From Candidatus Nomurabacteria bacterium (GTDB lineage: Bacteria > Patescibacteriota > Minisyncoccia > Phycocordibacterales > UBA9973): a stretch of DNA of 32,945 nucleotides. This document shows, piece by piece, positions 16,676-32,771 of the stretch (positions within the stretch are counted from its first letter, which is position 1; every line of letters starts with the position of its first letter). The position numbers and the translations under genes were made by a program. Below the pieces are notes generated by a model. That model was not told where the DNA came from, searched no databases, and saw only the letters and a list, made by a program, of their open reading frames with translations. Where the stretch lies: the NCBI GenBank assembly GCA_026396015.1, contig JAPLXP010000006.1, positions 1-32,945 of the forward strand, in the 5' to 3' direction.

Positions 16676-18124
16676 ATGGCTTATAAACCAAATTCTGGAA
16701 GAACTCGGAGTTCTTCCTCTGTAAATGATAGTGGCGACAGTCGTCCATCATTAAGATCAAGTGGTAGTCGTGGCGGAGCATCTCATGGAGGCCCATCTCG
16801 ATCATCACACAATAGTAGTAGTCCTGCTCGTCCATCTCGCGATGGAGGATCTCGATCATCAGCACCTTATGCAGGTGGTGGTAATAGTAGACCGTCATCA
16901 TCAGGTGGTCGTGGCAATTTCTCAGGAAATCGCCGTGGACGCACAGGTGGTTCAGGCGGTGGAGGCGGATCACGTAGTGGCTCATCTCGTGCCGGAGGAC
17001 GTGGCAAAGGTAATTTTGAGAGAATAGATTTCTCAAGATTTATCAACAAAGCGACAATCACAGAAAAAGAGGAAGTATACATACCGACTCATACATTCTC
17101 TGATTTCAAAGTTGCTGATTCTCTAAAGCGAGCAATCGCAAACAAGAATTATATCTTCCCAAGTCCGATTCAAGACAAGGCTATACCTCATGCTCTAGAA
17201 GGACGCGATATAGTAGGTATTGCGAATACTGGTACAGGTAAAACTGCAGCATTCCTAATCCCACTTATCAACAAGATATTGAATAACAAAAATGAAAAGG
17301 TGATAATCCTCGCTCCAACTCGCGAGCTGGCAATTCAGATTGAAAAAGAATTGTTTGAATTCGTACGTGGAATGGGTATCTTCTCAGTAGTCTGCGTCGG
17401 AGGCGCACCGATATTTCCGCAAATCAAGACATTGCGCCGTCGTTGCGACTTTATCATCGGTACACCTGGACGTATCATGGACCTAGTAGATCGAAAAGAA
17501 ATAATCCTCTCGACTGTGAACAATATAGTTCTCGATGAGGCTGATCGTATGCTAGACATGGGATTCGTAGATGATATGACCAAGATTTTGCGTGCTATGC
17601 CAGAAGAAAAACAAGCCTTTCTATTCTCAGCGACTCTTCCAAAAGAGGTAGAGAAGCTAGTAGAGAGATTCACAAAGGATCCAGTGCGCGTGATGGTAAA
17701 GACTCGCGATACATCAAAGAATGTAGAGCAAGATATCGTCCGCATTGCACGTGGTACAGAAAAAATGGATGTCCTAGAAGACCTACTCTCAAGTGCAGAA
17801 TTCGACAAAGTTATAATCTTTGCCGAGATGAAGCATACAGTAGAGAAGATTTCAGTGGAGTTGATCAAGCGCGGTTTCCGTGCAGGATCTATCCATGGCG
17901 ACAAGCGTCACAACGAGAGACAGAGAACACTGACACAATTTAAAGATGGAACTCTTAGTATTCTCGTAGCGACAGACGTCGCAGCTCGTGGACTTGATAT
18001 TCCAAATGTATCTCACGTGATCAACTTCGAAGTGCCTCAGACTTATGATACCTATGTTCACCGTATCGGCCGTACAGGTCGTGCTAGTGCAAAGGGTATG
18101 GCCCTGACATTCGTAGCAGGTTAA
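16676..18124 (+). CDS. DEAD-box RNA helicase (RhlE/CshA-like) with a long Ser/Gly/Arg-rich N-terminus
   Basis: Q motif PSPIQ, TGTGKT, PTRELA, TPGR, DEAD, SAT, ARGLD and HRIGRTGRA. Confidence 0.97.
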   Translation: MAYKPNSGRTRSSSSVNDSGDSRPSLRSSGSRGGASHGGPSRSSHNSSSPARPSRDGGSRSSAPYAGGGNSRPSSSGGRGNFSGNRRGRTGGSGGGGGSRSGSSRAGGRGKGNFERIDFSRFINKATITEKEEVYIPTHTFSDFKVADSLKRAIANKNYIFPSPIQDKAIPHALEGRDIVGIANTGTGKTAAFLIPLINKILNNKNEKVIILAPTRELAIQIEKELFEFVRGMGIFSVVCVGGAPIFPQIKTLRRRCDFIIGTPGRIMDLVDRKEIILSTVNNIVLDEADRMLDMGFVDDMTKILRAMPEEKQAFLFSATLPKEVEKLVERFTKDPVRVMVKTRDTSKNVEQDIVRIARGTEKMDVLEDLLSSAEFDKVIIFAEMKHTVEKISVELIKRGFRAGSIHGDKRHNERQRTLTQFKDGTLSILVATDVAARGLDIPNVSHVINFEVPQTYDTYVHRIGRTGRASAKGMALTFVAG

Positions 18125-18169
18125 GATTAAAATCCTCGCAAGAAATGTTCTCGCGAAAAACAAGGATCT

Positions 18170-18211
18170 AAATAAAATAGCCCCGGCCATTAGGCCGGGG
18201 CTATTTTATTT
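18170..18211. terminator. Intrinsic terminator (AAATAGCYCCGGC family, copy 3)
   Basis: AAATAAAATAGCCCCGGCC-ATTA-GGCCGGGGCTATTTTATTT. Confidence 0.85.
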
Positions 18212-18247
18212 GCATACTATAATTTTTTATTTTATAATTTAATTGTA

Positions 18248-21200
18248 ATGAGGAAGTGTAGATTCCGACATTTATTATTTTCGATAATAATAACTATTTT
18301 TAGTTTCGTCTTTTTTCAGTTTACTGCACACGCATCTACTGATGTCACTGATGATATCTATACAGATACCACTTGGACCGCTATTGATAGTCCGTATATT
18401 GTCCACAATAATCTTTTGATAGATATTGGTGCTACTTTGACATTGGAGGCTGGTACGATAGTGAAATTCGACAATGGTGCAGGTCTGTATTTATTAGGTA
18501 ATCTGGATTCAAATGGTACTGAGAGTGAACCAGTTTATCTGACTTCGTTTAAAGATGATAGTGTAGGCGGGGATACAGATGGAGATGGTGGGGTAAATAC
18601 TCCCAATTATAATGATTGGGGAAATATTATTTTTGATACCGGATCTGTGTCCGGGAATTTTAATCACACACTTGTAAAATATTCTTCTGGGATATTATCC
18701 TTTGGTGCTACTGTGAATGCTCGTTATTTAGAGGATGACAATAGTCTGATGATATTTGGTGTGTCTGATAATTCAATCTCTCATTCAAGTCTGAATAGCC
18801 TGAGTTTATTTGGTGGTAGTACTGCTAGTCTGACGAATAGTGTCATGGTAGATGCAGCAGAGAATTCATATGTATATTTGGATGGTAGCAGTAATCTATC
18901 TGTATATAGTACAACAATAAATTCCAATCAAAACGTAGGTACGATATTTAGTGTTTTTGATCATTCCACCTTACGTATTACTGACTCTAGTATCACTGGA
19001 TATGGAGGGAGTTTTTCTCGAGCTCTGGGTGTTTTTGATTATAGTAATCTTCATCTACGGAATACTACGATCACGAGTATTGCCTATGGTGTGTATTCCG
19101 ACAGTAATGCCAATCTAAATATTCGTGATTCTAGTATTGATTGCAATCGTGATGGTCTGAATATTTCCAGGTCTGTGCTCGATATATCTGGAGGGTCTAT
19201 TCATTGTACGGTCAATGGTATAAATATATTTAATTCAGAGTCTGTGATTGATGGTATTACTGTATATGGAGCGACAGAGAATGGCATAATCTCGTACGAT
19301 GGGACTTCAGATATCAAGAGTGTATCTATCTTAAATAGTGAGGTGAAGGATAATCATTATGGAATCTCTGCATACCAGTCTCCTGTGATAGCTCATGGAA
19401 ATAGTATTCATAGCAATTACGTCGGAGCTTTTGCATACGATGACTATGTTGGAATTTTGGATTTTACAAAAAATTGGTGGGGTAGTCCGTCTGGTCCGTA
19501 TCAAGTGAATGACAATCCAGATGGCACAGGCGATGAAGTTCTTGATTATATATCGTACGACCCATGGCTACGCTATGATCCACTACACCCTGGTCCTTCG
19601 AATGTATTGTTCATACCAGGATTCCAAGCTAGCCGTCTATACAAACAAAAACACTTTCCGATTATTGGAGATGTTGAAGATAAACTCTGGGAGCCAAATA
19701 CAAATAGTGACGTGACAGATATGTATATGGATATGAATGGTGTCAGCATCAATCCAGATATTTACACGCGCGATATTGTCGATACCGAGAGTATATTGGG
19801 TCTAGGTAATACCAAGATTTATGATTCATTCATAAGTGATATGAATGCACTCGTGGCTAGTGGCACTATATCCGACTGGCGGGCAGCACCGTATGATTGG
19901 CGACTCTCACCGGATGATATCGTATCGCGTGGCGCGATAGATAGCAATGGTAATATTTCCTACAATAATGATTTAGGTCCCACAGATGAGTCATACATGG
20001 TCCGTCAGGTATTGTCTTTGATAAATACTTCTCGGGATGGCAAGGTGACTATAGTCACACATTCAAATGGAGGCCTTGTCGCCAAGGCCCTGATGGTAAA
20101 GCTCCAGGCGATGAAGGACGCCGGATTGAATAATTATATTGATTATATAGATAGGGTGATCATGGTCGCCGCTCCACAGGTGGGTACACCAAAGGCTATA
20201 CCATCGTTGCTACATGGATATAAACAAGATTTATTGAACGGAGTATTTTTAAGGCAATCAATTGCTAGAATATTTGGACTGAATCTTCCTGGTGGGTATG
20301 GATTGCTTCCGAGTGAGAAATATTTTTATACAGTCAAGGATTCTCCTGTGTTGTTTGATAAATCTCTAGAAGTTATGAATCCATATGTGAACTTACACAA
20401 GACCTATGGCGATAGTATTGGGAGCTACAGTGACTACATTAGCTTCCTCCTCGGTACAAAGGATAGTCGTGTTCAGCCTGGTGTAGATGAATTGTCCACA
20501 CCATCAATCCTCGGAGAAGGTATTCTGACTAGGGCTACAGAAATGCATAGTAGTATAGACAATTATGTTTTTCCTCCGAGTGTACATGTATATCAAGTGG
20601 CCGGATGGGGTCTGCCTACGGTCAAGAGTGTGCGGTATTTTGCACGTACAGATTGTGTAAAGTTGATAGCTGGCAAGCCTTGTATTAAGGTAAAGAGTGT
20701 AGACGTCGAGCCGAACTTGATAGATGATGGAGATAAAACTGTGGTGACTCCTAGTGCCATTTACGAAAAAAATGCAGATAGTTATTATGTAAATTTATAT
20801 CAATACGCATCGGATCATAAAATTAACATTAATAAAACATTTGAGCATGCTGATTTTTTTGAACTATCATATCTTCGCGATTTTATTAAGAATACATTAT
20901 TAGGAATAGATACTCTTCCGGATTATTTCTCCAAGGTCAAGCCAAAGAGTAATAGCAATCTAGTCTTGAATGTACACCTATCTCCAGGGGTCAAGAAGAC
21001 CGTGCAAGTAGTCAGCAAGACGGGTACCAAGGTTGGAGTTGATAATATCACTCCGATTAGTCTAGATGCGGACAATTTTGAGCCTATACTATCTCAGATT
21101 CCGGGGGCAAGCTTTACTCATCTCGGGCATAGCTACTACTTCTATTTACCTACAGGTAGTGGATCTAGTTATACTCTACAGATCAGTAGTGTCGATACTG

Positions 21201-21931
21201 GTGTATCTCCTGTAGTCGGTAGTGTGGTTGATGTGCAGGATGTGGATAATATAGGTGGCACTGGTAGTCAGGTTTCCGAGGGAGAGGTGACTATACGTGT
21301 AGATACAGTGAATGACACTACGATAGAGAATTCTGTGTACACTCCACCTATCACAGTGGGTAGTGGTGGTAGTGCGAGTGTAGATATATCAGATACTGGC
21401 ACGACTGGTCCAGTGGCTGTAGATACTGGTGGTAGTGGGTCTATCGATAATACTGTGCCATTTGTACCTACACCTGATCCTAGTTCTCCAGTACAGATAG
21501 AACCTGATATTACATTACAAAACACCCCAGACACTTCATTAATTATTCGTAGTAGTGGTGGGCATCCTTCATCTATTGCTGCTTTAACAGAGAATATAAA
21601 ATCTGAGATTCAGAATAATGTGGAATCACAAGATTTAAAAGTGGTTGCAGTGACAAATACTGAGAGTGATTCAAGTCCTGCTCCTTTCTCGGGTGGAATA
21701 AATAATATTCATATTGAAAAATCGAGTATGGGTAATCAAGAAAAAGTTTCAACAGATTCAGTCTATACCCCCGATACAAATACTAAAACAAAAGGTATTA
21801 ATAACAATTCAATGTTGGCATCTGTCTATAATACATTGGTCAACGTGCCTATTGATGTATTGCTGATAGTTATACTCTTTATATTATTGCTTGTTTACCT
21901 TGTATATAGACGTAGGAATAAGGTAAAATGA
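18248..21931 (+). CDS. Large exported, C-terminally anchored protein: parallel beta-helix repeats plus an LCAT/PGAP1-like alpha/beta hydrolase (lipase/acyltransferase)
   Basis: Signal peptide ending AHA; TWT..SPY / GT...PVY.TS / NWWG..SGP beta-helix signatures; LFIPG, APYDWR, THSNGG nucleophile elbow, AAPQVGTP, DGDKTV and a late His; C-terminal TM plus RRRNK. Confidence 0.85.
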   Translation: MRKCRFRHLLFSIIITIFSFVFFQFTAHASTDVTDDIYTDTTWTAIDSPYIVHNNLLIDIGATLTLEAGTIVKFDNGAGLYLLGNLDSNGTESEPVYLTSFKDDSVGGDTDGDGGVNTPNYNDWGNIIFDTGSVSGNFNHTLVKYSSGILSFGATVNARYLEDDNSLMIFGVSDNSISHSSLNSLSLFGGSTASLTNSVMVDAAENSYVYLDGSSNLSVYSTTINSNQNVGTIFSVFDHSTLRITDSSITGYGGSFSRALGVFDYSNLHLRNTTITSIAYGVYSDSNANLNIRDSSIDCNRDGLNISRSVLDISGGSIHCTVNGINIFNSESVIDGITVYGATENGIISYDGTSDIKSVSILNSEVKDNHYGISAYQSPVIAHGNSIHSNYVGAFAYDDYVGILDFTKNWWGSPSGPYQVNDNPDGTGDEVLDYISYDPWLRYDPLHPGPSNVLFIPGFQASRLYKQKHFPIIGDVEDKLWEPNTNSDVTDMYMDMNGVSINPDIYTRDIVDTESILGLGNTKIYDSFISDMNALVASGTISDWRAAPYDWRLSPDDIVSRGAIDSNGNISYNNDLGPTDESYMVRQVLSLINTSRDGKVTIVTHSNGGLVAKALMVKLQAMKDAGLNNYIDYIDRVIMVAAPQVGTPKAIPSLLHGYKQDLLNGVFLRQSIARIFGLNLPGGYGLLPSEKYFYTVKDSPVLFDKSLEVMNPYVNLHKTYGDSIGSYSDYISFLLGTKDSRVQPGVDELSTPSILGEGILTRATEMHSSIDNYVFPPSVHVYQVAGWGLPTVKSVRYFARTDCVKLIAGKPCIKVKSVDVEPNLIDDGDKTVVTPSAIYEKNADSYYVNLYQYASDHKININKTFEHADFFELSYLRDFIKNTLLGIDTLPDYFSKVKPKSNSNLVLNVHLSPGVKKTVQVVSKTGTKVGVDNITPISLDADNFEPILSQIPGASFTHLGHSYYFYLPTGSGSSYTLQISSVDTGVSPVVGSVVDVQDVDNIGGTGSQVSEGEVTIRVDTVNDTTIENSVYTPPITVGSGGSASVDISDTGTTGPVAVDTGGSGSIDNTVPFVPTPDPSSPVQIEPDITLQNTPDTSLIIRSSGGHPSSIAALTENIKSEIQNNVESQDLKVVAVTNTESDSSPAPFSGGINNIHIEKSSMGNQEKVSTDSVYTPDTNTKTKGINNNSMLASVYNTLVNVPIDVLLIVILFILLLVYLVYRRRNKVK

Positions 21932-21960
21932 ATATATTATAAATATAATTTATTACTCTG

Positions 21961-22404
21961 ATGAATTTCAATTGGCAAAAAATTACATGGGTTAGTTTAA
22001 TAATTTCTATCTTTTTTCTTCTTACAAGTTTTCTATTTTGGTATAAAATGGATTCTTTTTGTTATGCGGGTCATTATGATTGCATGGATACTTTAAAATA
22101 TGGTTATGCTCTAACTTTGATTCAGATCTTACCCTTTACAGTTGGATCTCTAGTTATTATTCTGCTATTTACAAAAAAATACAAAAAAATTCTTTATATT
22201 TTTACTTTTTTAATTACTATTTCTTTAATATTTTTTGTATTTACTTTACCAGTAGAATGTGGTTTTGGTATCTGTGGTGATAGATCAACGGGGTCATTGC
22301 TTCTCCGTAACCTATACCCAATAATTCTAATCCCGACGGCTTTGATCATGTGGATCTATTTCAAAATCAAAGACTACAAAGAAAAACTAAATCAACTAAA
22401 ATAA
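21961..22404 (+). CDS. Hypothetical 4-TM membrane protein with paired Cys loops
   Basis: 147-aa AT-rich hydrophobic ORF with CYAGHYDC and CGFGIC loops. Confidence 0.75.
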   Translation: MNFNWQKITWVSLIISIFFLLTSFLFWYKMDSFCYAGHYDCMDTLKYGYALTLIQILPFTVGSLVIILLFTKKYKKILYIFTFLITISLIFFVFTLPVECGFGICGDRSTGSLLLRNLYPIILIPTALIMWIYFKIKDYKEKLNQLK

Positions 22405-22406
22405 CA

Positions 22407-22450
22407 AAAACGACATTCGCACATTCTATAGAATATTAGAATGTCGTTTT
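22407..22450. repeat. Palindromic repeat, left copy (GACATTC family)
   Basis: AAAACGACATTC-GCAC-ATTCTA|TAGAAT-ATTA-GAATGTCGTTTT. Confidence 0.85.
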
Positions 22451-22461
22451 AATATAAATAT

Positions 22462-22755
22462 ATGTTGGCGATAAAGAAAACAAAGCAACCAAAGAATAGT
22501 AATCAAATGGAGAAGGTATTCAAAGGTGTTTCTAATTATCATAGAATTGATATTTTGTTGTTTGTTGGAAATCAAAAAGGCGTAACATTAGATGATATTT
22601 GTTCCCAATTGAATTTAAATTTTAAAACTGCGTCTGGTCATACTCACAGATTAGTTCAATCTGGGTTAATAAAAAAGGTTCATCAGGGTCGTTTTGTAAT
22701 TCATACATTGTCGCCATACGGAGAAAATATTGTTAAATATATTAAATCATTCTAA
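22462..22755 (+). CDS. ArsR/SmtB-like winged-helix DNA-binding protein
   Basis: [42 protein letters not shown] and QGRFV..TLSPYG. Confidence 0.85.
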
Positions 22756-22764
22756 TCTATAATC

Positions 22765-22806
22765 AAATGACATTCTCACATTCTCGAGAATGTGAGAATG
22801 TCATTT
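22765..22806. repeat. Palindromic repeat, right copy (GACATTC family)
   Basis: Perfect 42-nt palindrome AAATGACATTCTCACATTCTC|GAGAATGTGAGAATGTCATTT. Confidence 0.88.
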
Positions 22807-22868
22807 TTGTTTATATTTTTAAATTTGCGGTGATTGCTTGGGGATGGTGGGGAGGGTATAATTTGGCT

Positions 22869-23354
22869 ATGAAAAAAGCATATTTTGCAGGGGGATGTTT
22901 TTGGGGATTGGAGGAGTTGTTTCGTACTCAGCCGGGAATCGTAGATATCACAGCAGGATATACTGGAGGTGAGAATGACAATCCTACATATGAGGACCAC
23001 GAGGGTCATGCCGAGGCACTAGAGATAGTATATGATCCATCCGTCACTAGCTATAAAAAACTTTTGGATTTCTTCTTTCAGATCCATAATCCGACGACAT
23101 TGAATCAACAGGGTAATGACAGGGGTACCTCATATCGCTCTGCGATATTCTATCAGAATGATGAAGAATTAAATGAAGCAAAAGACTTTATCGATATAGT
23201 AAATAAATCTGGACGTTGGTCCGACCCTGTCGTTACCATACTCGAATCATTCACTATATTCTGGCGTGCCGAGGAATATCATCAGGACTATCTGCAAAAG
23301 AATCCCGGTGGATACACGTGCCATGCGATATACTTTGACTCATATTTAAAATAA
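22869..23354 (+). CDS. msrA: Peptide-methionine (S)-S-oxide reductase
   Basis: [28 protein letters not shown] and AEEYHQDY; start reassigned to ATG 22869. Confidence 0.97.
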
Positions 23355-23376
23355 TCTTAAACCTAAAAAATATAAA

Positions 23377-23588
23377 ATGGAAAACTTAAAACTAAACGAA
23401 CTAACTGAAGAAGAGAAAAGGGTGATAATAGACAAGGGGACTGAAAGGCCTTTTGTGGGTGAATATACGAATACTATGGCCACTGTGGTGGCCACCTCGG
23501 GCACCTATTCACAGGTGAAGGCTTTACCGACAAAAACATCCGCCACTGCGTGAATTCAATATCAATGAAATTTATAGAGGGGAAATAA
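23377..23588 (+). pseudogene. msrB: Internally deleted, frameshifted methionine-R-sulfoxide reductase
   Basis: One frame gives the MsrB N-terminus ([22 protein letters not shown]); from 23481 another frame gives the C-terminus ([31 protein letters not shown]). The central first CxxC / GWPSF / RTE part is absent. Confidence 0.88.
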
Positions 23589-23608
23589 AGTTGTGGTATA
23601 ATTTATTT

Positions 23609-24115
23609 ATGGAGAAAGATAAAAACAATTATGCTTTTATTGATAGCCAGAATTTAAATCTGGCAATTCAATCTCTTGGATGGAAATTAAATTTTTCTAG
23701 ATTCAGAGTTTATTTAAAGGAAAAGTATGGTGTCTCAAAAGCTTTTTTATTTATTGGCTACATAGAAGGAAACAATCAATTATACATATCGCTTCAAAAT
23801 GCAGGATTTATTTGTATTTTTAAGCCCACATTAAAATATAAAGATGGAACTACAAAAGGGAATTGCGATGCCGAGCTCGTGCTACAAGCTATGATTGAAT
23901 ATCAGAACTTTGATAAAGCACTTATTGTAACAGGTGATGGTGATTTTCATTGCCTTGTTAATCATTTCATACAAAATAAAAAATTAAATGCAGTTATTAT
24001 TCCAAATAGACTTAGTTTTTCTGCCCTACTAAAAATGGACTACATAAGGCCATATTTGAGATTTATGAATGATTTACAAAATAAATTAGAGTATAAAAAA
24101 GAAAAGGCCCCTTAA
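23609..24115 (+). CDS. NYN domain (LabA/DUF88, PIN-like) putative ribonuclease
   Basis: AFIDSQNL, KGNCDAEL and VTGDGDF acidic active-site motifs; start reassigned to ATG 23609. Confidence 0.92.
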   Translation: MEKDKNNYAFIDSQNLNLAIQSLGWKLNFSRFRVYLKEKYGVSKAFLFIGYIEGNNQLYISLQNAGFICIFKPTLKYKDGTTKGNCDAELVLQAMIEYQNFDKALIVTGDGDFHCLVNHFIQNKKLNAVIIPNRLSFSALLKMDYIRPYLRFMNDLQNKLEYKKEKAP

Positions 24116-24153
24116 GGACAAAACCTTAAAGGGTGATCTCTTCCGTTCGTGAT
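24095..24153 (-). ncRNA. Predicted ~59-nt small RNA antisense to the 3' end of the NYN gene
   Basis: A minus-strand promoter lies just upstream; the transcript AUCACGAAC-GGAAGAGAUCACCCUUUAAGG-UUUUGU-CCUUAAGGGGCCUUUUC-UUUUUU folds into a long hairpin plus U tract and contains no AUG. Confidence 0.6.
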
Positions 24154-24159
24154 AAATGT

Positions 24160-24189
24160 ATTATAGCACCCACTATACATAACAGTCAA
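24160..24189 (-). promoter_or_regulatory. Convergent sigma70 promoter pointing into the NYN 3' end
   Basis: Minus strand TTGACT(24189-24184)-N18-TATAAT(24165-24160) with an extended -10 TG. Confidence 0.75.
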
Positions 24190-24216
24190 TACCTTATTAA
24201 TATAATTATAATTTAA

Positions 24217-24684
24217 ATGAAGAAATTTTGGCTTATTAAAAGTGAAGGGGATTGCTACTCGATAGATGACTTGAAAAAAGATAAGAAGATTGCTTGGACT
24301 GGTATTCGCAATTATCAATCCCGTAATTTTATGATGAATGACATGTCCGTAGGTGATATGGCCCTCTTTTACCATTCCAATGGCACAGTCGAAGCACCCA
24401 CTGGTGTATACGGCATAGCCCGTGTGGCCTCGGCATCGCACCCGGACGAGACGCAGTTTGCAAAGGGGGATGAACACTACGATCCCAAGGCGACAAAGGC
24501 CAAGCCGATTTGGTACTGTGTAGACATGGCCTTTGTCCTCAAATTCAAGAATCCTGTGACCCTCGCTGAAATCAAGATTGACCCTGCTCTCGATGGCATG
24601 CTCGTCCGCGCCCGCGGATCCCGCCTGTCCATTCAACCCGTCTCCCAAAAGCATTTTGAGTATATTGTGGGGTTAGAGGGGTAG
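24217..24684 (+). CDS. EVE domain protein (Thy28/THYN1-like, PUA fold)
   Basis: FWLIKSE, WTGIRNYQSRNFM, GDMALFYHS, YDPK and SRLSIQPV. Confidence 0.94.
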   Translation: MKKFWLIKSEGDCYSIDDLKKDKKIAWTGIRNYQSRNFMMNDMSVGDMALFYHSNGTVEAPTGVYGIARVASASHPDETQFAKGDEHYDPKATKAKPIWYCVDMAFVLKFKNPVTLAEIKIDPALDGMLVRARGSRLSIQPVSQKHFEYIVGLEG

Positions 24685-24730
24685 AATTTGAGTGATGTAT
24701 TGGATGGGTGTTTTGTGGTATAATTTTAAT

Positions 24731-25381
24731 GTGAAAATAAAGGATTTTCCTAAGCAAGATAGGCCAAGAGAAAAACTGGAAAAGTATGGTCCAGGTAAAT
24801 TATCAGATGCGGAATTGCTAGCTATATTACTACGAACTGGAACAAAGGATTTGAATGTTTTAAAATTGTCTCAAAAAATTTTACAAAAATTTGAGAACAA
24901 AAAAATTATAGATATTTCGATTGAAGAACTAAAAACTATTCACGGGCTAGGAACAGTTAAATCTTGTGAAATAATTGCTTGTTTTGAATTGGGAAAAAGA
25001 ATGTTGAAAGACAAAAAATTCTCAATCTTACTCTCACCTAAGGATGTTTGGGAAAGAATGGAAGATATCAGAGGGAGTAAAAAAGAGCATTTTGTTGTTT
25101 TTTATTTAGATAGCAGAAACCAAGAAATACAAAGAGAAATTATCTCTATGGGCACATTAAATGAAAGCCTGGTTCATCCACGGGAAGTCTTTGAGGGTGC
25201 TATCAAAAATAATGCCGCTTCGATTATACTTGCTCACAATCATCCGTCAGGAGATATGGATCCATCTGAAGCAGATATTGAAATAACAAAAAAGTTAGTA
25301 CATGCTGGAAAAATTTTAGATATTAAAATTATTAATCACGTTATTATAACAAATAATTCATGGTCAAGAATTGAATTTTAA
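24731..25381 (+). CDS. radC: RadC (UPF0758) JAB-domain protein
   Basis: RPREKL..G...LSDAELLAILLRTG, HhH, EHF, VHPREVF and HNHPSG..PS..D; start reassigned to GTG 24731. Confidence 0.95.
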   Translation: MKIKDFPKQDRPREKLEKYGPGKLSDAELLAILLRTGTKDLNVLKLSQKILQKFENKKIIDISIEELKTIHGLGTVKSCEIIACFELGKRMLKDKKFSILLSPKDVWERMEDIRGSKKEHFVVFYLDSRNQEIQREIISMGTLNESLVHPREVFEGAIKNNAASIILAHNHPSGDMDPSEADIEITKKLVHAGKILDIKIINHVIITNNSWSRIEF

Positions 25382-25394
25382 AAATATAAATTTT

Positions 25395-26780
25395 ATGAAT
25401 AAAGAAACTAGAATTAAAAATATTGCTGAAATTATCAAGAGAGATAAAGAGCATGGTAGACAGGATATACCATGGAAAGATAAATTGGAGCCGATGGCTG
25501 TTTATTTAATTCCTTTAGAATATCTTGTTTACAATAAATATAATGGACGTATTTTAAGTAGAACTAAGTCACTTGAAATGCAAGGTTACGAAATTGATGC
25601 TGCATCTAAAGAAGGCAAAAATCTTATCGAGAAGCTTCTTATGGATTCAAATCCCGGAAGAAATAAACAAACCCTTGATAGTATTAATAAAATGGGACAA
25701 GAAAAAGTAGGAATTATTACTCGAGATGGAATTGTAATTGATGGTAATAGGCGTACTATGTTGTTGAATAAGTCTGGTAAATATAATTATTTTAAAACAG
25801 TTGTATTGGATGTTACCTTAGAGGAGAACCCTTTAGAGATTGAGAAGCTTGAAACAACTTATCAAATGGGTGAAGATGAAAAATTAGGATACAAAGCAAT
25901 CGAAAAATACTTAAAATCTAAATTATTGCATGAAAGAGAAATATCTATTGATAAAATTGCTGACTGGATGGGTGAAGATAGCTCAAAGATAAAGGAATAT
26001 TTGAGTGTAATGGGAGTAATGGATGAGTATTTGGAGTACCTTGGATGCACTGGAATATATACACAGCTAGATGAAAGAGAGGACCAATTTATAAGCCTAA
26101 CAAGATGGCTAGAAACTTTTTATGGAGAGAATAGTTCCAAGGGATTTGATGGATATAAAGATAGTGATGTTGATGATCTTAAAATAATTTCATTTGATTA
26201 TATAAGAGCTATTTATGAGGGAAAAGAATTTCGTAATATTGGTTACGGTTTAAAAAACAATCATTTTTTTGGAGATAAAAAAATTTGGGAAAGTTTTAAG
26301 GATTTTCATTTTAAAAAAATGGATACAATAAAGCATTTGGAGATAAAAATTGACTTTAAATCTGATAATCTTGAATCCCATTTAAGGGACAGAGATGTAA
26401 AATACAAAGAGAGTACAAAAAATAAAGAAGGAGAGAGTTTTTTAGAAGAAAATATTAGAATTCATAAGCAGCAACTACAGAATATAAAATCAGCAAACGA
26501 ACCCTCAAAACTTGTGTCAACTGCAAGTGATGCTTTAAATGCAATTAATCAAAAAAATCCATCCTTTTTAAATAATGATGTTTCCGACGGCCTCGAGGTA
26601 ATAAGCGAAAAGGTTATAAATATGATTGCGGTTAATTCTCCTGATAAGATTCTCTCTCATGTTAATAAAATGTTAAAATCAATTTCTTTAGATAAAGATA
26701 ATTCTTTAAAAAAACATATGTTGATTAAAATACAAGACATTGAAAAAACGATATCTCTTATAAGAAAAAATATCGAATAA
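25395..26780 (+). CDS. ParB/Srx-fold-like protein with a putative HTH and a helical C-terminal region
   Basis: IPL..L.YN..NGRI and GQ..VGII..DG.VIDGNRR (ParB-type arginine patch), then an IDKIADWMG HTH-like segment; likely ATG at 25395. Confidence 0.65.
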   Translation: MNKETRIKNIAEIIKRDKEHGRQDIPWKDKLEPMAVYLIPLEYLVYNKYNGRILSRTKSLEMQGYEIDAASKEGKNLIEKLLMDSNPGRNKQTLDSINKMGQEKVGIITRDGIVIDGNRRTMLLNKSGKYNYFKTVVLDVTLEENPLEIEKLETTYQMGEDEKLGYKAIEKYLKSKLLHEREISIDKIADWMGEDSSKIKEYLSVMGVMDEYLEYLGCTGIYTQLDEREDQFISLTRWLETFYGENSSKGFDGYKDSDVDDLKIISFDYIRAIYEGKEFRNIGYGLKNNHFFGDKKIWESFKDFHFKKMDTIKHLEIKIDFKSDNLESHLRDRDVKYKESTKNKEGESFLEENIRIHKQQLQNIKSANEPSKLVSTASDALNAINQKNPSFLNNDVSDGLEVISEKVINMIAVNSPDKILSHVNKMLKSISLDKDNSLKKHMLIKIQDIEKTISLIRKNIE

Positions 26781-26785
26781 ATTAT

Positions 26786-28762
26786 ATGGATAATATAATA
26801 CATATAGATATTGATAATTCGACCTCTAATTTTAAGTTAATAGGTGACATTGAAAGTGTCATCAGTAATACTAGATTAGTTTTTTCATTGAAGAGATTTA
26901 GCTATAGTTCTTTTGATAATTATATTTTGGTGCCATATAATCAAAAATCAAAAATACAAATACTTCAAGATTTAATTTTTTTACTTGAGAAATTTAATTT
27001 TAATGCAAGTTTAACTAACGGAACCAGTAATGAGGTGTCTAATTTTGAGAGAGAAAAAGATTCTTTTCTTGTTTTTTCTAACAAAGCTAAAAATATTCGT
27101 AATAACGAGTTTGATAAAAATCCGGAACTAGTAAATGATTTTGATAAATTTCAGAGTGTTTTAAAGAAAAAAATAGTACGCCCACTTTACCGGCTTCAAT
27201 TGTTGTCTGCTTTTCACATGGCTTTTTCTCAGAATTCTTGTAATTTTGCTGTACCTGGTGCTGGAAAAACTTCCATTGTTTATGGAGCTTATGCATATTT
27301 AAATAGTCTTCCTGCTGATGATGATAAACATGTAGACAAAATATTAGTAATTGGACCACTGTCATCTTTTTCTCCTTGGGAAAAAGAATATGAGGAATGT
27401 TTTGGTCGCAAACCATCATTCCAGAGGTTGTCTGGTGACTCAACTATTTCTAGGTCTCATAAGGAACAACATCTTTTTTCTGGTAATCCTGTTGAGCTAA
27501 CTCTTATAAATCACGGAGGTGTTGATAGTTTACAATACGAAATCATTTCATTTCTTAAAAAAAATAAAACAATGGTTGTGATTGATGAGGCACATAGAAT
27601 AAAAAACCCGGAGGGTGTTTGGGGGAAAAGTGTTGTTGAGATATCAAAGGAAGCAAAATCTAGGGTTGTGTTAACAGGGACACCAGTTCCAAATGGCTAT
27701 GAGGATTTGTATAATTTGTTTCAATTTTTATATCCTTATAAATATAAAGATATACTAAAATTACATTTTCAAAATTTAGTTGAAATGACAGTAAACTCAG
27801 ATATTAATAGTGATAGAGTCAAGGAATTTATAGATAGTATATCACCATATTTTATTCGTATTAAGAAGAGTGATTTAAAATTACCACCAATAAATGAAAC
27901 ACTGGTTAAAATTAATATGAGTATAATGCAAAGAGAAATTTATGATTTTATCGAAGATAAATATATTAAGCAATTTAAAAGTAATAATTCAGCTAATGTT
28001 AAGGATTTGTTAAACAAAGCTAAATTAATACGCTTGAGACAAGCTTCCACTAACCCGTCCCTTCTTCTTAAATCAATTTCTGAAAATATAGACTCAGAAG
28101 ATTATGAACAAAGAATCAATTTTTACAAGCAAATGCCAGATGAGTTTCAGGATGATTCAAATATTGTTTCTAAAATAATTAAGTATTCAAAAATTGAAAC
28201 CCCTGAAAAATTTATTGCAATAAAAAAAATATTAGAGGAAAAGATATTTATTGAAAAAGGAAAAGTTATTATTTGGACTATATTTATTCAAAACGCCAAA
28301 GAACTTCAGGACTATCTTATATTCAATAATATAAAATCAAAATTGTTAATCGGAGAGGTTCCTCAATCTGAACGTGAATTTATTATTGATAAATTCAATA
28401 ATCCAGAAAATATGGAATTTCAAGTTGTTATCGCCAACCCATTTTCTGTGTCTGAGTCGATTTCACTTCACAAGGGTTGTCATAATGCTATTTATATGGA
28501 GCGTGACTATAATTGTTCTAATTTTTTGCAGTCCAAAGACAGAATACATAGATATGGTTTATCTCAAAAGCAAAAAACTAATTACTATTATTTAGTTTCA
28601 ACTGATTCAATTGATGAAATTATTAATGAAAAATTGGCTATAAAAATTGAAAGAATGGAAAAAATAATTGATGATGATATACCACTTTTATCACATATTA
28701 ATGATTCAGATGAAACTGATGTGATTAAAGCTTTATTAGAAAATTATTTTAATAAAAATTAA
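26786..28762 (+). CDS. SNF2-family (SF2) helicase/translocase
   Basis: PGAGKT, DEAH, LTGTPVPN, RLRQASTNP, KVIIW, SESISL and QSKDRIHRYG. Confidence 0.92.
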   Translation: MDNIIHIDIDNSTSNFKLIGDIESVISNTRLVFSLKRFSYSSFDNYILVPYNQKSKIQILQDLIFLLEKFNFNASLTNGTSNEVSNFEREKDSFLVFSNKAKNIRNNEFDKNPELVNDFDKFQSVLKKKIVRPLYRLQLLSAFHMAFSQNSCNFAVPGAGKTSIVYGAYAYLNSLPADDDKHVDKILVIGPLSSFSPWEKEYEECFGRKPSFQRLSGDSTISRSHKEQHLFSGNPVELTLINHGGVDSLQYEIISFLKKNKTMVVIDEAHRIKNPEGVWGKSVVEISKEAKSRVVLTGTPVPNGYEDLYNLFQFLYPYKYKDILKLHFQNLVEMTVNSDINSDRVKEFIDSISPYFIRIKKSDLKLPPINETLVKINMSIMQREIYDFIEDKYIKQFKSNNSANVKDLLNKAKLIRLRQASTNPSLLLKSISENIDSEDYEQRINFYKQMPDEFQDDSNIVSKIIKYSKIETPEKFIAIKKILEEKIFIEKGKVIIWTIFIQNAKELQDYLIFNNIKSKLLIGEVPQSEREFIIDKFNNPENMEFQVVIANPFSVSESISLHKGCHNAIYMERDYNCSNFLQSKDRIHRYGLSQKQKTNYYYLVSTDSIDEIINEKLAIKIERMEKIIDDDIPLLSHINDSDETDVIKALLENYFNKN

Positions 28763-28771
28763 AATCAGTTT

Positions 28772-30229
28772 ATGACTACATATATTACAAAAGAAGAAGT
28801 TTTAGAACAATCAAGAATTATACTTAATAAATCTTTATATGAAATAATGCCTTCTGATCAGATAGAAGAAATAGAAAGAAAAATTTATGAATATAAAAAT
28901 CAAAGAAAAGGGTATCTGGGTGAATTAATTGAATGGTATGTGTTTGGTAAAAAACCAGACGGCTTAAGTCAGGCTGATTTTAATATTGCTGGAGTGGAGC
29001 TAAAGGCAACACCCCTAAAAAAACATAAGAATAATATCTATGCGTCAAAAGAGAGGCTTGTTTTTTCAATGATTAATTATGAAGAAATTGTAAAAGAAAC
29101 TTGGGAAAAAAGTTCATTTCTTAAGAAAAACAAAGTTATTCTTTTAATGTTTTATCTATGGATTCAAAGTCAAAGTATTTTAGATTACGAATTTAAATAT
29201 ATTCATTTACTTGATTTGTTAAATGACTTGTCAGACGAAGATGTTTTTCAAATTCAGAAAGACTGGGAGTATATAGTAGAAAAAATCAAAAGAGGAGAAG
29301 CACACTTGTTATCTGAGGGAGATACTTATTATTTGGGAGCTTGTACGAAAGCTGCTAATAGTCGTGTTGTTAGAGACCAGCCAATGAATCGTACACTAGC
29401 AAAACCTCGTGCATTTTCTTTTAAGCAACAATATATAAATTATTTAATACAAACAAAACTTCTTAAGAGAAAAACAAGCACAGATTCTATTTTTAAAAAA
29501 CAAAGAAGGATTGAAACAATTGAAAGTGTAGTTAAAGAGAAATTCGCATTATTCATCAATAAAACAGATGAAGAAATATTAAAGAAACTTAATTCAAATT
29601 TAGGTAAGAAATCAAAAAGCTATAAAAGGCTAATAGTTAATCAAATCCTTGGGGTAAAATCAAATAATATTGAGGAGTTAGAAAAAGCTAATATAACCCT
29701 AAAGGTTGTGACATTGGAATATAATGGAAGATTAAAAGAATCTATCTCTTTTCCATTTTTTAAATATAAAGATTTAGTTAATGAATTGTGGTATGACGAA
29801 GAAAATGAAAATATGGCGGAACTTCATTTGCAGCTTGAAACTAAAAAATTCATGTTCGTTGTTTTTCAGAAGGTTAAAGGCAGTGACGATATTATTTTGA
29901 GAAAAACTATGTTTTGGAATTTCCCCATGAAAGATATTTCTAAGGCCCGAGATGTATGGGAGAAGACCGTTGATTTTGTTAGTAGTGGAAAAATTGTTAA
30001 AGAGATTGTTTTAGATAAAAAAGGAAAAGAGAAGAGAATTACATATTTCCCTGGTATGTCTTTTAATGGGGTAGTTCATGTTAGACCTCATGGCTCAAAC
30101 AGTAGAGATGTAAATATTTTACCTGTCGCTGACCTCTTAACTGGTCAAAAAAGCTATACAAAGCAATGCTTTTGGTTGAATGCAGGTTATATACAGCAGG
30201 CCATAGAAAATGACAAAGATCAAGCTTGA
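28772..30229 (+). CDS. Sau3AI/MutH-family type II restriction endonuclease (probable GATC target)
   Basis: KG.LGELIE, ADF..AGVELKATPLKK, KERL..SMINY, SEGDTYYLGACTK, KPRAFSFK, KESISFP, HVRPH and KQCFWLN; 485-aa two-domain size. Confidence 0.9.
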   Translation: MTTYITKEEVLEQSRIILNKSLYEIMPSDQIEEIERKIYEYKNQRKGYLGELIEWYVFGKKPDGLSQADFNIAGVELKATPLKKHKNNIYASKERLVFSMINYEEIVKETWEKSSFLKKNKVILLMFYLWIQSQSILDYEFKYIHLLDLLNDLSDEDVFQIQKDWEYIVEKIKRGEAHLLSEGDTYYLGACTKAANSRVVRDQPMNRTLAKPRAFSFKQQYINYLIQTKLLKRKTSTDSIFKKQRRIETIESVVKEKFALFINKTDEEILKKLNSNLGKKSKSYKRLIVNQILGVKSNNIEELEKANITLKVVTLEYNGRLKESISFPFFKYKDLVNELWYDEENENMAELHLQLETKKFMFVVFQKVKGSDDIILRKTMFWNFPMKDISKARDVWEKTVDFVSSGKIVKEIVLDKKGKEKRITYFPGMSFNGVVHVRPHGSNSRDVNILPVADLLTGQKSYTKQCFWLNAGYIQQAIENDKDQA

Positions 30230-30254
30230 TCAATTTGATTGAATCTGCTAGAAT
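30218..30254 (+). promoter_or_regulatory. Internal methyltransferase promoter with GATC sites at the -35
   Basis: TTGATC(30226-30231)-N17-TAGAAT(30249-30254) with an extended TG, overlapping the palindrome GATCAAGCTTGATC (30218-30231); the ATG is 6 nt after the -10. Confidence 0.65.
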
Positions 30255-30260
30255 TATAAT

Positions 30261-31532
30261 ATGAAAAAGATTAAAGTTATTGAGCTATTTGCTGGAGTTG
30301 GAGGTTTCCGAATCGGCCTTGATAGAGCTAGTAAAAAAGATGTAAAATTTGAAACAGTTTGGAATAGTCAATGGGAGCCAGGAGCAGTAACTCAGCATGC
30401 CTCTGAAATATATATAAAAAACTTTGGTGATAATGGTCACTCCTGTGAAGACATTCAGGATGTTGTTGACAATAAATTTAAGGAAATTCCCAATCATGAT
30501 TTACTCGTTGGTGGTTTTCCTTGCCAAGATTATTCTGTTGCCAGAACTGCTAATCAAGCAAAAGGTATCTATGGAAAGAAGGGAGTTCTGTGGTGGTCTA
30601 TTTATAATATTTTAAATAAGAAAGGTAAAAATGCACCTGATTTTTTGTTGTTGGAAAATGTTGATCGTTTATTAAAATCACCATCAGCACAAAGAGGTAG
30701 GGATTTTGCTGTTATGTTGGCTTCTCTTTCTGACTTAGGATATATTGTTGAATGGCGTGTTGTTAATGCTGCTGAATATGGATTTCCACAAAGAAGAAGA
30801 AGGATCTTTATTATGGGATATAAAAAAGGAAGTAAGGTTTTTAATCTTATTAAAAAAGAAAAAGATTTAAAAAATTGGATTTATAAAGAGGGGGTTATCG
30901 CAAAAGCATTCCCTGTTAAAAAAGATAATTCAAAGCTTGAAGAATTTGATATTAAAGGTAGCCTTGAAGAAATATCAGATAATTTTTCTTCTGATAAACC
31001 ATCCAAAAGCCCTTTTGAAATTTCGGGTGTTATGATGGATAGAAAAATTTATACAACTAAAACAACTCCTGATTACAAGGGTAAATTTATTACACTTAGT
31101 GATATTATTATTCATGATGAGAGTAAAATACCAGAGGAGTTTTTTATAAAAAACGAAGATAAAAAGAGATGGGAATATTTAAAAGGTGGGAAAAAGGAAG
31201 AAAGAAAATCTAAGGATGGTTTTGAATATAGTTACGCTGAGGGCCCAATGATTTTTCCTGATTCATTAGATAAGCCATCTAGAACTATAGTTACAGGAGA
31301 GGGTGGAAGTTCTCCTTCTCGTTTTAAGCATGTCATTAAAACTAAGTCTGGTAAATTGCGTAGGCTTACACCTATTGAGCTCGAAAAATTAAATATGTTT
31401 CCAGAAAACCATACAAAGATAATGCAAAGCGGAAAAATAACGCCGGATGTAAAAAGAGCTTTCATTATGGGGAATGCTTTGGTTATTGGTGTTATTGAAA
31501 GATTAGGAAAGTCTCTCTCTGATTTTGTCTAG
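30261..31532 (+). CDS. dcm: DNA (cytosine-5)-methyltransferase, M.Sau3AI-like
   Basis: ELFAGVGG, GGFPCQDYS, ENV, PQRRRR, RRLTPIE and MGNAL; also NSQWEP, GVLWW, QRGRDF and RTIVTGEGG as in Sau3AI-type MTases. Confidence 0.95.
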   Translation: MKKIKVIELFAGVGGFRIGLDRASKKDVKFETVWNSQWEPGAVTQHASEIYIKNFGDNGHSCEDIQDVVDNKFKEIPNHDLLVGGFPCQDYSVARTANQAKGIYGKKGVLWWSIYNILNKKGKNAPDFLLLENVDRLLKSPSAQRGRDFAVMLASLSDLGYIVEWRVVNAAEYGFPQRRRRIFIMGYKKGSKVFNLIKKEKDLKNWIYKEGVIAKAFPVKKDNSKLEEFDIKGSLEEISDNFSSDKPSKSPFEISGVMMDRKIYTTKTTPDYKGKFITLSDIIIHDESKIPEEFFIKNEDKKRWEYLKGGKKEERKSKDGFEYSYAEGPMIFPDSLDKPSRTIVTGEGGSSPSRFKHVIKTKSGKLRRLTPIELEKLNMFPENHTKIMQSGKITPDVKRAFIMGNALVIGVIERLGKSLSDFV

Positions 31533-31577
31533 CATCTAATAATTCTTAAATATTAATCATAAAACTACTTTAAAATT

Positions 31578-32771
31578 ATGAACGAAATAAAATGCCCAAA
31601 ATGTGGAACCTCATTTAAAATCGACGAAGCCGGTTTTGCTGATATTCTCAAACAAGTCCATAATGCAGAATTTAATAAAGAGTTAAAAGAGCGCGAAAGA
31701 GCATTTAATATAGATAAGGAAAATGCTGTAAAACTTGCTGAGGCAAATACTAAAAATGTAGCACAGGTAGATATCTCAAGGAAGGATTCCGAAATATCCG
31801 AAATGAAGTCAAAGATTGAAAAATATAATATTGAGAAAAAACTTGCCGTTACTGAAGCGGTTAATAAAATTGAGAAAGAACGTGATTTACTCGCTAATGA
31901 ACTAAAAAATAAAGATACTGAGATTCAGGTTTTCGCTAATTCTCTGAAAGATAAGGCTTTGGCTTTGTTTGGTAATGAGAATGCTAAAGAAGTCGTATTT
32001 AAGAAGCCATACGAAGTTCAAAAGAAGGAATTTGAAGAAAAGTTAAAGCAATTAAAAGAAAAGGCTCCTTCTGTATTTTCTGTTGATGAATTACAGGGAG
32101 AAGAAGAGAAGGCGGAATTTATTACGACATTCCGTGATTTACTTCGCATAAAATCATCACTTGAAACTTTTGCTGAATTTTCTTTTAGTGACGTTGGTAT
32201 AACAGAACAAGAATTTTATGACTACCAGAGTAAATATCTTGATATTTATGAAGAGCGTAAAAATTATGAAGCTGGGGCTGAATCTATTTTAGATCAGATT
32301 GATTTTGAAATTGAATTGACTGTTCGAGATGTGATTAATTTTGACTATATAATCCAATTAATTGCAGGTCTAAAGAACATTACTTCTGATGCATTAAGGA
32401 AAAAGAAAACAGAAGAGATTTTGCATGTATTTGATGGTGATGTTCAATTGCGTAAAAAGAAAGATTTGATTAAAAAATTTATCGAAGAGAATCTTCCACA
32501 TATAGATAAATCAGAAAATGTTGAAAAAGCTTTCGGGGAATTCTGGGCAAGTGAAAGATCAAATGCATTAAAAGAAATTGCTGAATCTGATAATATTTCA
32601 GTTGAAAAAATCGAACAGTTAATAGGAGAATATCTATATACACAAAGACTACCTCAGGGTCAGGATATAGTTGATCTGTTGCCTGCGACACCTAAACTAC
32701 TAGAAAGGCAGGGGATTATTGATTGTATTAAGGGTGCTATTGAAAATGTAGTTGATATGTTTGAGTGGTAA
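31578..32771 (+). pseudogene. In-frame chimera: DUF2130-family N-terminus fused to the C-terminal domain of a type I restriction subunit HsdR (EcoR124I-like)
   Basis: aa 1-~125: IKCPKCG.F.IDE.G.ADILKQV plus coiled coil. From DKALALFGN onward: FITTFRDLLR, DYQSKYLDIY and DFEIEL....INFDYI; no nuclease or helicase motifs. Confidence 0.75.

Follow-up and report, generated by a model that had tools for sequence, protein, structure and literature searches.

The stretch of DNA analysed here, referred to below as the window, is a 32,945-nucleotide (nt) piece of contig JAPLXP010000006.1 from a Candidatus Nomurabacteria bacterium, and its element of interest lies within positions 23,589-24,189: a gene for a NYN nuclease met head-on by a predicted small RNA gene that overlaps its 3' end. 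The conserved 5' end, stem, loop and promoter of the RNA, together with the absence of a conserved protein partner, give good support to the view that the two form a two-component module. Our preferred reading, to which we assign a rough probability of 0.55, is that NYN is a toxic nuclease kept harmless by an RNA antitoxin dedicated to it; we infer the transcription, the toxicity, the inhibition and the mode of that inhibition. The parts of the cassette are the following:

23590-24189: whole cassette, about 600 bp, between two inward-facing promoters
23594-23602, plus strand: NYN promoter (by sequence), an extended -10 box TGGTATAAT that ends 6 nt 5' of the ATG
23609-24115, plus strand: NYN (LabA-like, PIN-fold) nuclease gene, 168 amino acids (aa), Pfam PF01936; ATG at 23609, stop at 24115
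24189-24160, minus strand: small RNA promoter, with -35 TTGACT (24189-24184), an 18-nt spacer, and TGC plus TATAAT (24168-24160)
about 24153-24092, minus strand: small RNA gene (predicted), about 59-62 nt, starting at the A of ATCACG and closing with the U tract
24153-24145, minus strand: single-stranded 5' tail, 9 nt, AUCACGAAC (family consensus AUCACCAAC)
24144-24137, minus strand: 5' arm of the outer stem (GGAAGAGA), pairing with 24097-24104
24133-24108, minus strand: inner stem, 24133-24124 with 24117-24108, and hexaloop UUUUGU at 24123-24118
24105-24095, minus strand: U tract (UUUUCUUUUUU), complement of the NYN codons for KKEK

The NYN protein scores above the gathering cut-off of Pfam PF01936 (E = 4.3e-11, 44 bits against 24.2); in PADLOC the NYN model matches it loosely (E = 6.3e-8), and NCBIfam holds no matching model. 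Its genome carries a single copy. The AlphaFold2 model (pLDDT 92.9) has a PIN-like alpha/beta fold, for which Foldseek gives 2qip as the nearest structure (E = 3.4e-8, TM 0.71) and also finds the NYN domain of MARF1 (E about 2e-3, TM 0.60). Residues D12, N15, D87, D110 and D112 are invariant among 65 aligned sequences. According to the available part of a review of the PIN superfamily (PMC5499597), four conserved acidic residues bind the metal ion in the NYN/LabA-like group; judging from the motifs, D12, D87, D110 and D112 would be these canonical positions, the acidic residues of the active site appear intact, and an endonuclease is predicted. Since 6 nt separate the -10 box from the ATG and no Shine-Dalgarno (SD)-like sequence precedes that codon, the NYN mRNA of the window is probably leaderless. 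Among 69 scored NYN loci, a -10 box (at least 5 of 6 matches, ending 3-12 nt before the ATG with a mode of 6) occurs in 22 and an SD-like 4-mer in 6.

The minus-strand promoter TTGACT-N18-TGcTATAAT, to which a preliminary description of this locus had drawn attention, is present as claimed: with 11 of 12 consensus matches plus the TG it is the top promoter-like site in 18000-30000. The same description saw no credible protein gene behind it, and rightly: the open reading frame (ORF) of 180 aa there (24654-24112, minus strand) begins upstream of the promoter and is an antisense shadow of the EVE gene. Promoter-like sites as a class are not enriched in 18000-30000 (52 against 58.7 +/- 7.5 in shuffles), so that the window alone is weak evidence. 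This lack of enrichment is in favour of a sceptical explanation, an ordinary intrinsic terminator of NYN next to a chance promoter-like sequence, which is contradicted by the comparative data given below and to which we attach almost no credence.

Folded as a minus-strand RNA, the unit reaches -21.1 kcal/mol (z = -4.0; none of 200 shuffles as good), against -15.0 kcal/mol for the plus strand (z = -1.6; 13 of 200 shuffles as good). The unit of ~59 nt proposed earlier stands with its tail, hairpin, UUUUGU loop and U tract, whereas its stem, given as 6+10 pairs, has 8+10: eight pairs in the outer part and ten in the inner, with a 3x3 internal loop between them. The ten inner pairs and the UUUUGU loop, with the tail CCUUUUCUUU, make a terminator-like hairpin at 24133-24108. 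The 3' arm and the U tract do share their bases with the last NYN codons (KKEKAP*), as had also been observed.

With the covariance model R1, whose E-values are rough, the window RNA scores 75.3 bits (E = 3.7e-12), and the 772-kb genome holds one strong copy, the next best match having E = 0.17. Rfam 15 gives no match at gathering score in the whole window, and in E-value mode over 23900-24300 only chance-level matches, the best being Srn266 (E = 0.35; 21.5 bits, where the cut-off is 63) on the opposite strand. The predicted RNA is a new RNA family, with no Rfam match and no description found in the literature searched. In the full-text literature, no paper came up that connects small RNAs or antitoxins with NYN proteins of bacteria (supplements and subscription journals being outside this scope), and PMC8040213 makes no mention of NYN, LabA, DUF88, Saccharibacteria or TM7. 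A conserved small ORF inside the RNA was considered and rejected (the window RNA has no AUG, and the AUGs of relatives are not conserved). Two likenesses were considered and dropped as unsupported: that of AUCACC to the 3' end of 16S rRNA, as diverged relatives do not retain AUCACC, and that of the RNA loop to the tRNA T-loop.

What raises the unit above chance is its recurrence, as a whole, behind NYN homologues. A protein scan with one genome per species gave 98 NYN relatives, of which the best 80, 60-83% identical, were used; they are labelled mostly as metagenome-assembled genomes (MAGs) of many Patescibacteria lineages, with a few Bacteroidota or Proteobacteria. The pattern searched 3' of the NYN stops (reverse -35, spacer, -10, ATCAYNA start) matches in 77 of 81 rows; L025, L061 and L070 are slight variants by eye, and L079, where the contig ends inside NYN, was left out. 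The convergent RNA unit stands behind all 80 evaluable close homologues, and the ATCACG-type 5' end, the covarying stem, the loop and the reverse promoter, for which the preliminary description had proposed a check of this kind, are all conserved there.

The promoter matches the consensus at 10 or more of 12 positions in 60 of the 80 loci and in none of 79 control windows lying 100 nt beyond. In 45 loci the -10 box is preceded by TGn, and in 47 it ends 6 nt before ATCAC. Because the -35 and -10 boxes are conserved at fixed spacing while the sequence of the spacer between them drifts, the promoter appears to be one that is used. In the alignment of the 80 sequences, 80.6% of the cells of the outer stem and 94.1% of those of the inner stem are paired, and six of the ten inner pairs have changes on both sides. 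Double-change cells of the inner stem number 92, against 28.1 +/- 3.8 in shuffles (reached by none of 500), and the covariation score reaches 0.283, where slid partners give no more than 0.192; the structure was derived from the same 80 sequences, which favours it somewhat in these comparisons. G-U-type pairs outnumber A-C-type pairs 53 to 10, which argues for a helix selected on the minus strand. By our terminator rule the minus strand is a terminator in all 80 relatives and the plus strand in 61. As the plus strand could end the NYN mRNA in these 61, the hairpin may be bidirectional and also serve as terminator of that mRNA; the plus strand has no U tract in the window and in 19 of the 80 relatives. 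The 61 plus-strand cases are what a plain NYN terminator would give. Against such a terminator stand the promoter counts in loci and controls, the strand bias of the G-U pairs, the minus-strand terminator at every locus, and the conserved 5' tail, which falls outside any terminator.

Conservation is highest where the RNA is predicted to be unpaired. Mean pairwise identity is 93% in the 5' tail (58 long-class relatives) and 85% across the loop and the pairs that close it (GGUUYYGUCC, all 80 sequences), compared with 53% in the covarying mid-stem, 29% at the four-fold degenerate sites of NYN, which are saturated, and 26% in the DNA 61-120 nt beyond the RNA start. Conserved unpaired parts combined with covarying stems look like a structured RNA recognised by a partner. 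From one locus to another, the same conserved nucleotides are read in different frames as the C-terminal tail of NYN (KKEKAP*, KKRPHKDETL* and others), and the constraint therefore lies on the RNA and not on the peptide.

A more diverged set comprises 20 genomic and 3 viral-contig homologues, 36-62% identical. An automatic test for promoter, fold and U run is passed by 15 of these 23; L110 and L111 pass model R1, and the RNAs of L109, L114 and L118 were accepted by eye or weakly. All three viral-contig NYN loci have the RNA. There is no match among 50,697 phage records, and plasmids yield only NYN genes of 25-30% identity (rhizobia). In the diverged relatives the outer stem is swapped for GAGAGGC/GCCUCUC or GGCUGGC/GCCAGCC and the tail becomes AUCACGAUGA, AUUACGACGA or AUACACAUGA, while the apical GG-UUYYGU-CC is kept. 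In L119 (4470-4530), L104, L105 and L107 a symmetric internal loop with tandem non-Watson-Crick A/G positions replaces the inner helix; the variants read CUGAUG...CUGAUGAG (L119) and CCUAAGG...CCGAAGG (L104), with the apical GG-UUUCGU-CC retained. This tandem A/G loop may be a structured protein-binding motif.

Searches that start from the RNA reveal an asymmetry of loss. Model R1 found 12 places in 11 of 151 genomes, of which 8 adjoin an intact NYN. The RNA of L090 adjoins a degraded NYN, at L097 only the first 15 NYN codons remain, fused to the tail, and at L092 an orphan RNA lies at the end of an ABC-transporter gene; the match at L096, a plain terminator by look, was set aside. A 16-mer scan of metagenomes led to 80 fetched loci, 9 of which have the RNA by R1, the other 71 being chance matches with no NYN nearby. 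Six of the nine carry a full NYN, L195 and L130 have none, and L166 keeps the last 21 NYN residues only. The 20 confident RNA copies thus comprise 14 beside an intact NYN, three beside remnants (L090, L097, L166) and three orphans (L092, L195, L130), and all six copies without an intact NYN keep their -35 and -10 boxes. Conversely, no close NYN gene lacks the RNA (0 of 80). At L195 (262-558, minus strand) the orphan RNA faces a 98-aa helix-turn-helix protein that is 49% identical to the MarR/ArsR-like protein of the window (22462-22755), whose gene lies 850 nt upstream of NYN; this is one instance, which could be due to chance.

The preliminary description had offered three roles for the RNA: antisense repressor, protein-binding antitoxin, and substrate or guide. 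That close NYN genes are never found without the RNA, and the RNA sometimes without NYN, favours the inhibitor or antitoxin among them and disfavours the cofactor or guide. As a cofactor, guide or dedicated substrate, the RNA would either form a ribonucleoprotein in which its tail directs or activates cleavage, or be processed by NYN as a mini-helix-like RNA with a 5' leader. A conserved single-stranded tail and loop and an exclusive linkage to a nuclease would suit such a role, and the fold of NYN also occurs in RNA-processing enzymes, among them protein-only RNase P. We nevertheless find it quite improbable. The tail is constant and therefore cannot encode changing targets; at one mismatch or fewer over 12 nt of it, the genome offers the cis site and two others, where an estimated ~3 are expected by chance, and the complement of the loop occurs only in cis. 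Orphan RNAs that keep their promoters would be unexpected, and NYN genes without the RNA should be tolerated, yet there are none among the close homologues.

The antisense role, taken alone, would be type I-like: the RNA would pair with the 3' end of the NYN mRNA, RNase III would cut the duplex and the mRNA would be degraded, with no contact between RNA and protein. Much of the layout is compatible with this. The two genes converge and overlap at every locus, the hairpin loops of mRNA and RNA are perfectly complementary by construction, this genome has an RNase III gene, and where the plus strand has no U tract (the window and the 19 relatives) the mRNA would read through the whole complement. 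The pair txpA/RatA, with converging transcripts, a 3' overlap and RNase III, offers a precedent (PMC4147584, in the part available). Complementarity of this kind holds for any sequence, yet conservation of the tail and the loop is 85-93% against a background of saturated silent sites, which is more than a purely cis-antisense RNA needs. In the 61 loci with a plus-strand terminator the hairpin could stop the mRNA before the complement of the tail is reached, and for the orphan RNAs, whose promoters are intact, there is no partner mRNA. No second pairing with the 5' region of NYN is seen in 78 loci (mean z: tail 0.11, loop -0.06), nor any elsewhere in the NYN coding sequence (mean z = 0.00). A GGUGAU hexamer draws the best tail sites in that sequence to the GDGD codons (nt 300-330 in 35 of 80); this candidate pairing was rejected, its energies being equal to those of shuffles and the codons being variable. 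On balance pure antisense action seems unlikely. Direct binding of the RNA by the protein is the more likely mode, given the conserved unpaired sequence, the want of a target outside the cis complement, the possible end of the mRNA at the hairpin in those 61 loci, and the promoters kept by the orphan RNAs. Both modes may operate together.

The borders of the cassette are sharp. DNA similarity to the two closest relatives, L002 and L003, runs from ~20 nt before the NYN ATG, at the extended -10 box, to just past the -35 of the RNA; spanning only this interval, it delimits a self-contained unit of ~600 bp. The preliminary description found no protein antitoxin evident, and the neighbourhoods agree: no third gene is conserved, and the largest cluster of non-NYN neighbours occurs in 6 of 80 loci. 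Neighbours, for the most part a mixture of housekeeping genes, range over RNA polymerase beta-prime, primase, triose-phosphate isomerase, phosphoglycerate kinase, CTP synthase, SecA, DnaK and tRNA synthetases to glycosyltransferases and a few methylases and integrases. They are mostly co-oriented with NYN (upstream in 56 of 74 cases, downstream in 61 of 74), and the reverse promoter therefore serves no convergent protein gene. In L005, L012 and L023 (also L006 and L029; MAGs labelled Paceibacteria or Nomurabacteria) the cassette sits between the genes for RNA polymerase beta-prime and primase, and in L078 between those for triose-phosphate isomerase and phosphoglycerate kinase, at both sites inside usual operons.

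The NYN subfamily counts 132 representative clusters at E <= 1e-30. Relatives occur in 111 of 401 genomes sampled across the phylum but in neither of two genomes of the same family, and the closest ones (83%) stand in other contexts. In the same-family genome G284, msrB and msrA are in a different order, the EVE gene is missing and synteny to the window is lost. The best reading of this distribution is that the cassette has spread horizontally. One could also imagine that the function lies in the DNA, the hairpin and its flanks being the recognition or recombination site of a selfish element that NYN moves by acting on DNA, with transcription incidental. The many unrelated intergenic sites and the sharp borders would agree with such an element, and PIN-like folds include DNA flap nucleases. 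It is made very improbable by the -35 and -10 hexamers held at fixed spacing across a drifting spacer and by the G-U pairs that point to an RNA helix of one strand; in the window, moreover, no convincing terminal repeats or target duplications surround the cassette.

Upstream of the cassette the window carries the following genes:

22462-22755, plus strand: MarR/ArsR-like gene
22767-23354, plus strand: msrA
23377-23588, plus strand: broken msrB

In the broken msrB, the first 33 codons are in frame within ORF 23377-23553, and the C-terminal part (HLGHLF...KFIEGK*) follows in another frame (23493-23588) after an internal deletion or frameshift; a genome of the same family has an intact MsrB of 125 aa (L123, 1991-2368). 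Between the MarR/ArsR-like gene and msrA lies a perfect 19-bp inverted repeat with a 4-nt loop (22765-22806), which covers the start of the longest msrA ORF and may act as terminator or operator; L028 has a similar sequence upstream of NYN. Downstream of NYN follow, in order and on the plus strand, genes for EVE, RadC, a 469-aa protein with a DGNRR motif, a SNF2 helicase (ZorD/DpdE/DrmD-like), a MutH/Sau3AI-like nuclease, a C5 DNA methylase and a C-terminal fragment of a type I R-subunit. These genes (24217-32771) resemble a restriction/defence island, a context that the other NYN loci do not have. The window contains no tRNA or tmRNA genes.

In the mechanism that we propose, the NYN endonuclease would be expressed in the window from its own -10 promoter, probably on a leaderless mRNA, and the convergent RNA would be made from the near-consensus promoter and end at the hairpin and U tract over the last NYN codons. 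The antidote RNA would be made constitutively and in excess and so keep NYN harmless; once its supply stops, through loss of the cassette, shut-off of transcription or phage infection, the nuclease would be freed. In the likeliest mode, similar to type III systems, NYN would bind the single-stranded 5' tail and the apical loop of the RNA, with a possible contribution from antisense pairing at the 3' end of its mRNA. The asymmetric loss, the autonomy and patchy spread of the cassette, the strong promoter of the RNA and the intact active site all fit a toxin with an RNA antidote.

Several points weigh against this reading. The RNA copies without an intact NYN are few (6 of 20) and come from kin that are not independent, and those orphan RNAs that lie at the 3' end of another gene (ABC transporter, ligA) may have been retained simply for their use as terminators. 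Among the 23 diverged homologues, the NYN genes of L112 and L116 have no recognisable RNA, and L115 is ambiguous. The cassette often stands between housekeeping genes and not in defence islands. An invariant convergent and abutting layout is what cis-antisense action needs, and not what a protein-binding RNA needs. The RNA is here a prediction from sequence, and there is to our knowledge no earlier case of a toxic stand-alone NYN/LabA-like protein. The function of the NYN/LabA-like group is given as unknown in the part of the PIN-superfamily review available (PMC5499597).

We put forward a bolder version only tentatively, as possible but doubtful: one short hairpin RNA would silence a PIN-fold NYN nuclease by binding it directly, making a new class of toxin-antitoxin or abortive-infection systems in which neither partner is related to known type III systems, on a ~600-bp cassette whose leaderless mRNA and two inward promoters are built for any host. 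If this were true, the NYN-RNA cassette could be one of the most common accessory modules in the candidate phyla radiation. No function is assigned to the large family of stand-alone bacterial NYN/LabA-like proteins, and the conserved RNA partner is a first concrete handle on one branch of it. Should the antidote reading hold, RNA-antitoxin systems would extend to PIN-fold nucleases and to the Patescibacteria, whose regulatory RNAs and toxin-antitoxin biology are almost unexplored. Being small (~600 bp) and self-sufficient, the cassette can be tested directly by cloning it into a laboratory host.

The preliminary description knew no named system with this layout; there are in fact precedents, as txpA/RatA and the par locus of pAD1 (Fst RNA I and RNA II) are type I systems with two converging transcripts each, according to the available part of PMC4147584. 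Like txpA/RatA and bsrG/SR4 (type I, Bacillus subtilis), the cassette has convergent genes, a 3' overlap and a promoter of its own for the RNA, and like them it is a small module in variable genomic contexts (same source, same part). The toxins of these pairs are small membrane peptides, whereas here we have a soluble NYN nuclease of 168 aa; their overlaps are long and free to drift, whereas the RNA here is of ~60 nt with conserved unpaired parts. Of the type I features, a convergent RNA with its own promoter over the 3' end of the gene is predicted at our locus, and a small hydrophobic toxin peptide is absent. The par transcripts share a bidirectional terminator, RNA II is about 65 nt long, and the 5' end of the antitoxin must also pair with the translation start of the toxin. 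In our case the RNA has no complementarity to the NYN start (z 0.11 and -0.06 for tail and loop in the 78 loci), and the type of toxin differs.

With VapBC (type II) the cassette appears to share a PIN-like metal-dependent nuclease with conserved acidic residues and the form of a small mobile module; VapC is neutralised by the protein VapB, encoded upstream in the same operon, whereas no conserved protein neighbour is present here. NYN proteins form a separate branch of the PIN-like superfamily in the part of PMC5499597 available. The domain and the fold are those of the LabA-like NYN proteins (PF01936/COG1432; 2qip), for whose bacterial group the same part of that review names no RNA partner. 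From ToxIN the cassette differs in its RNA, ToxI consisting of tandem 36-nt repeats that lie upstream and are co-transcribed, and ours being a single hairpin, downstream and convergent, with no ToxI-like tandem repeats in 23000-24700. ToxN is not known to have the PIN/NYN fold. The proposed likeness to ToxIN and AbiQ (type III) lies in an endoribonuclease toxin that an excess of a dedicated, small and structured RNA neutralises; their cassettes are portable and act in abortive infection, as set out in the available part of PMC4147584.

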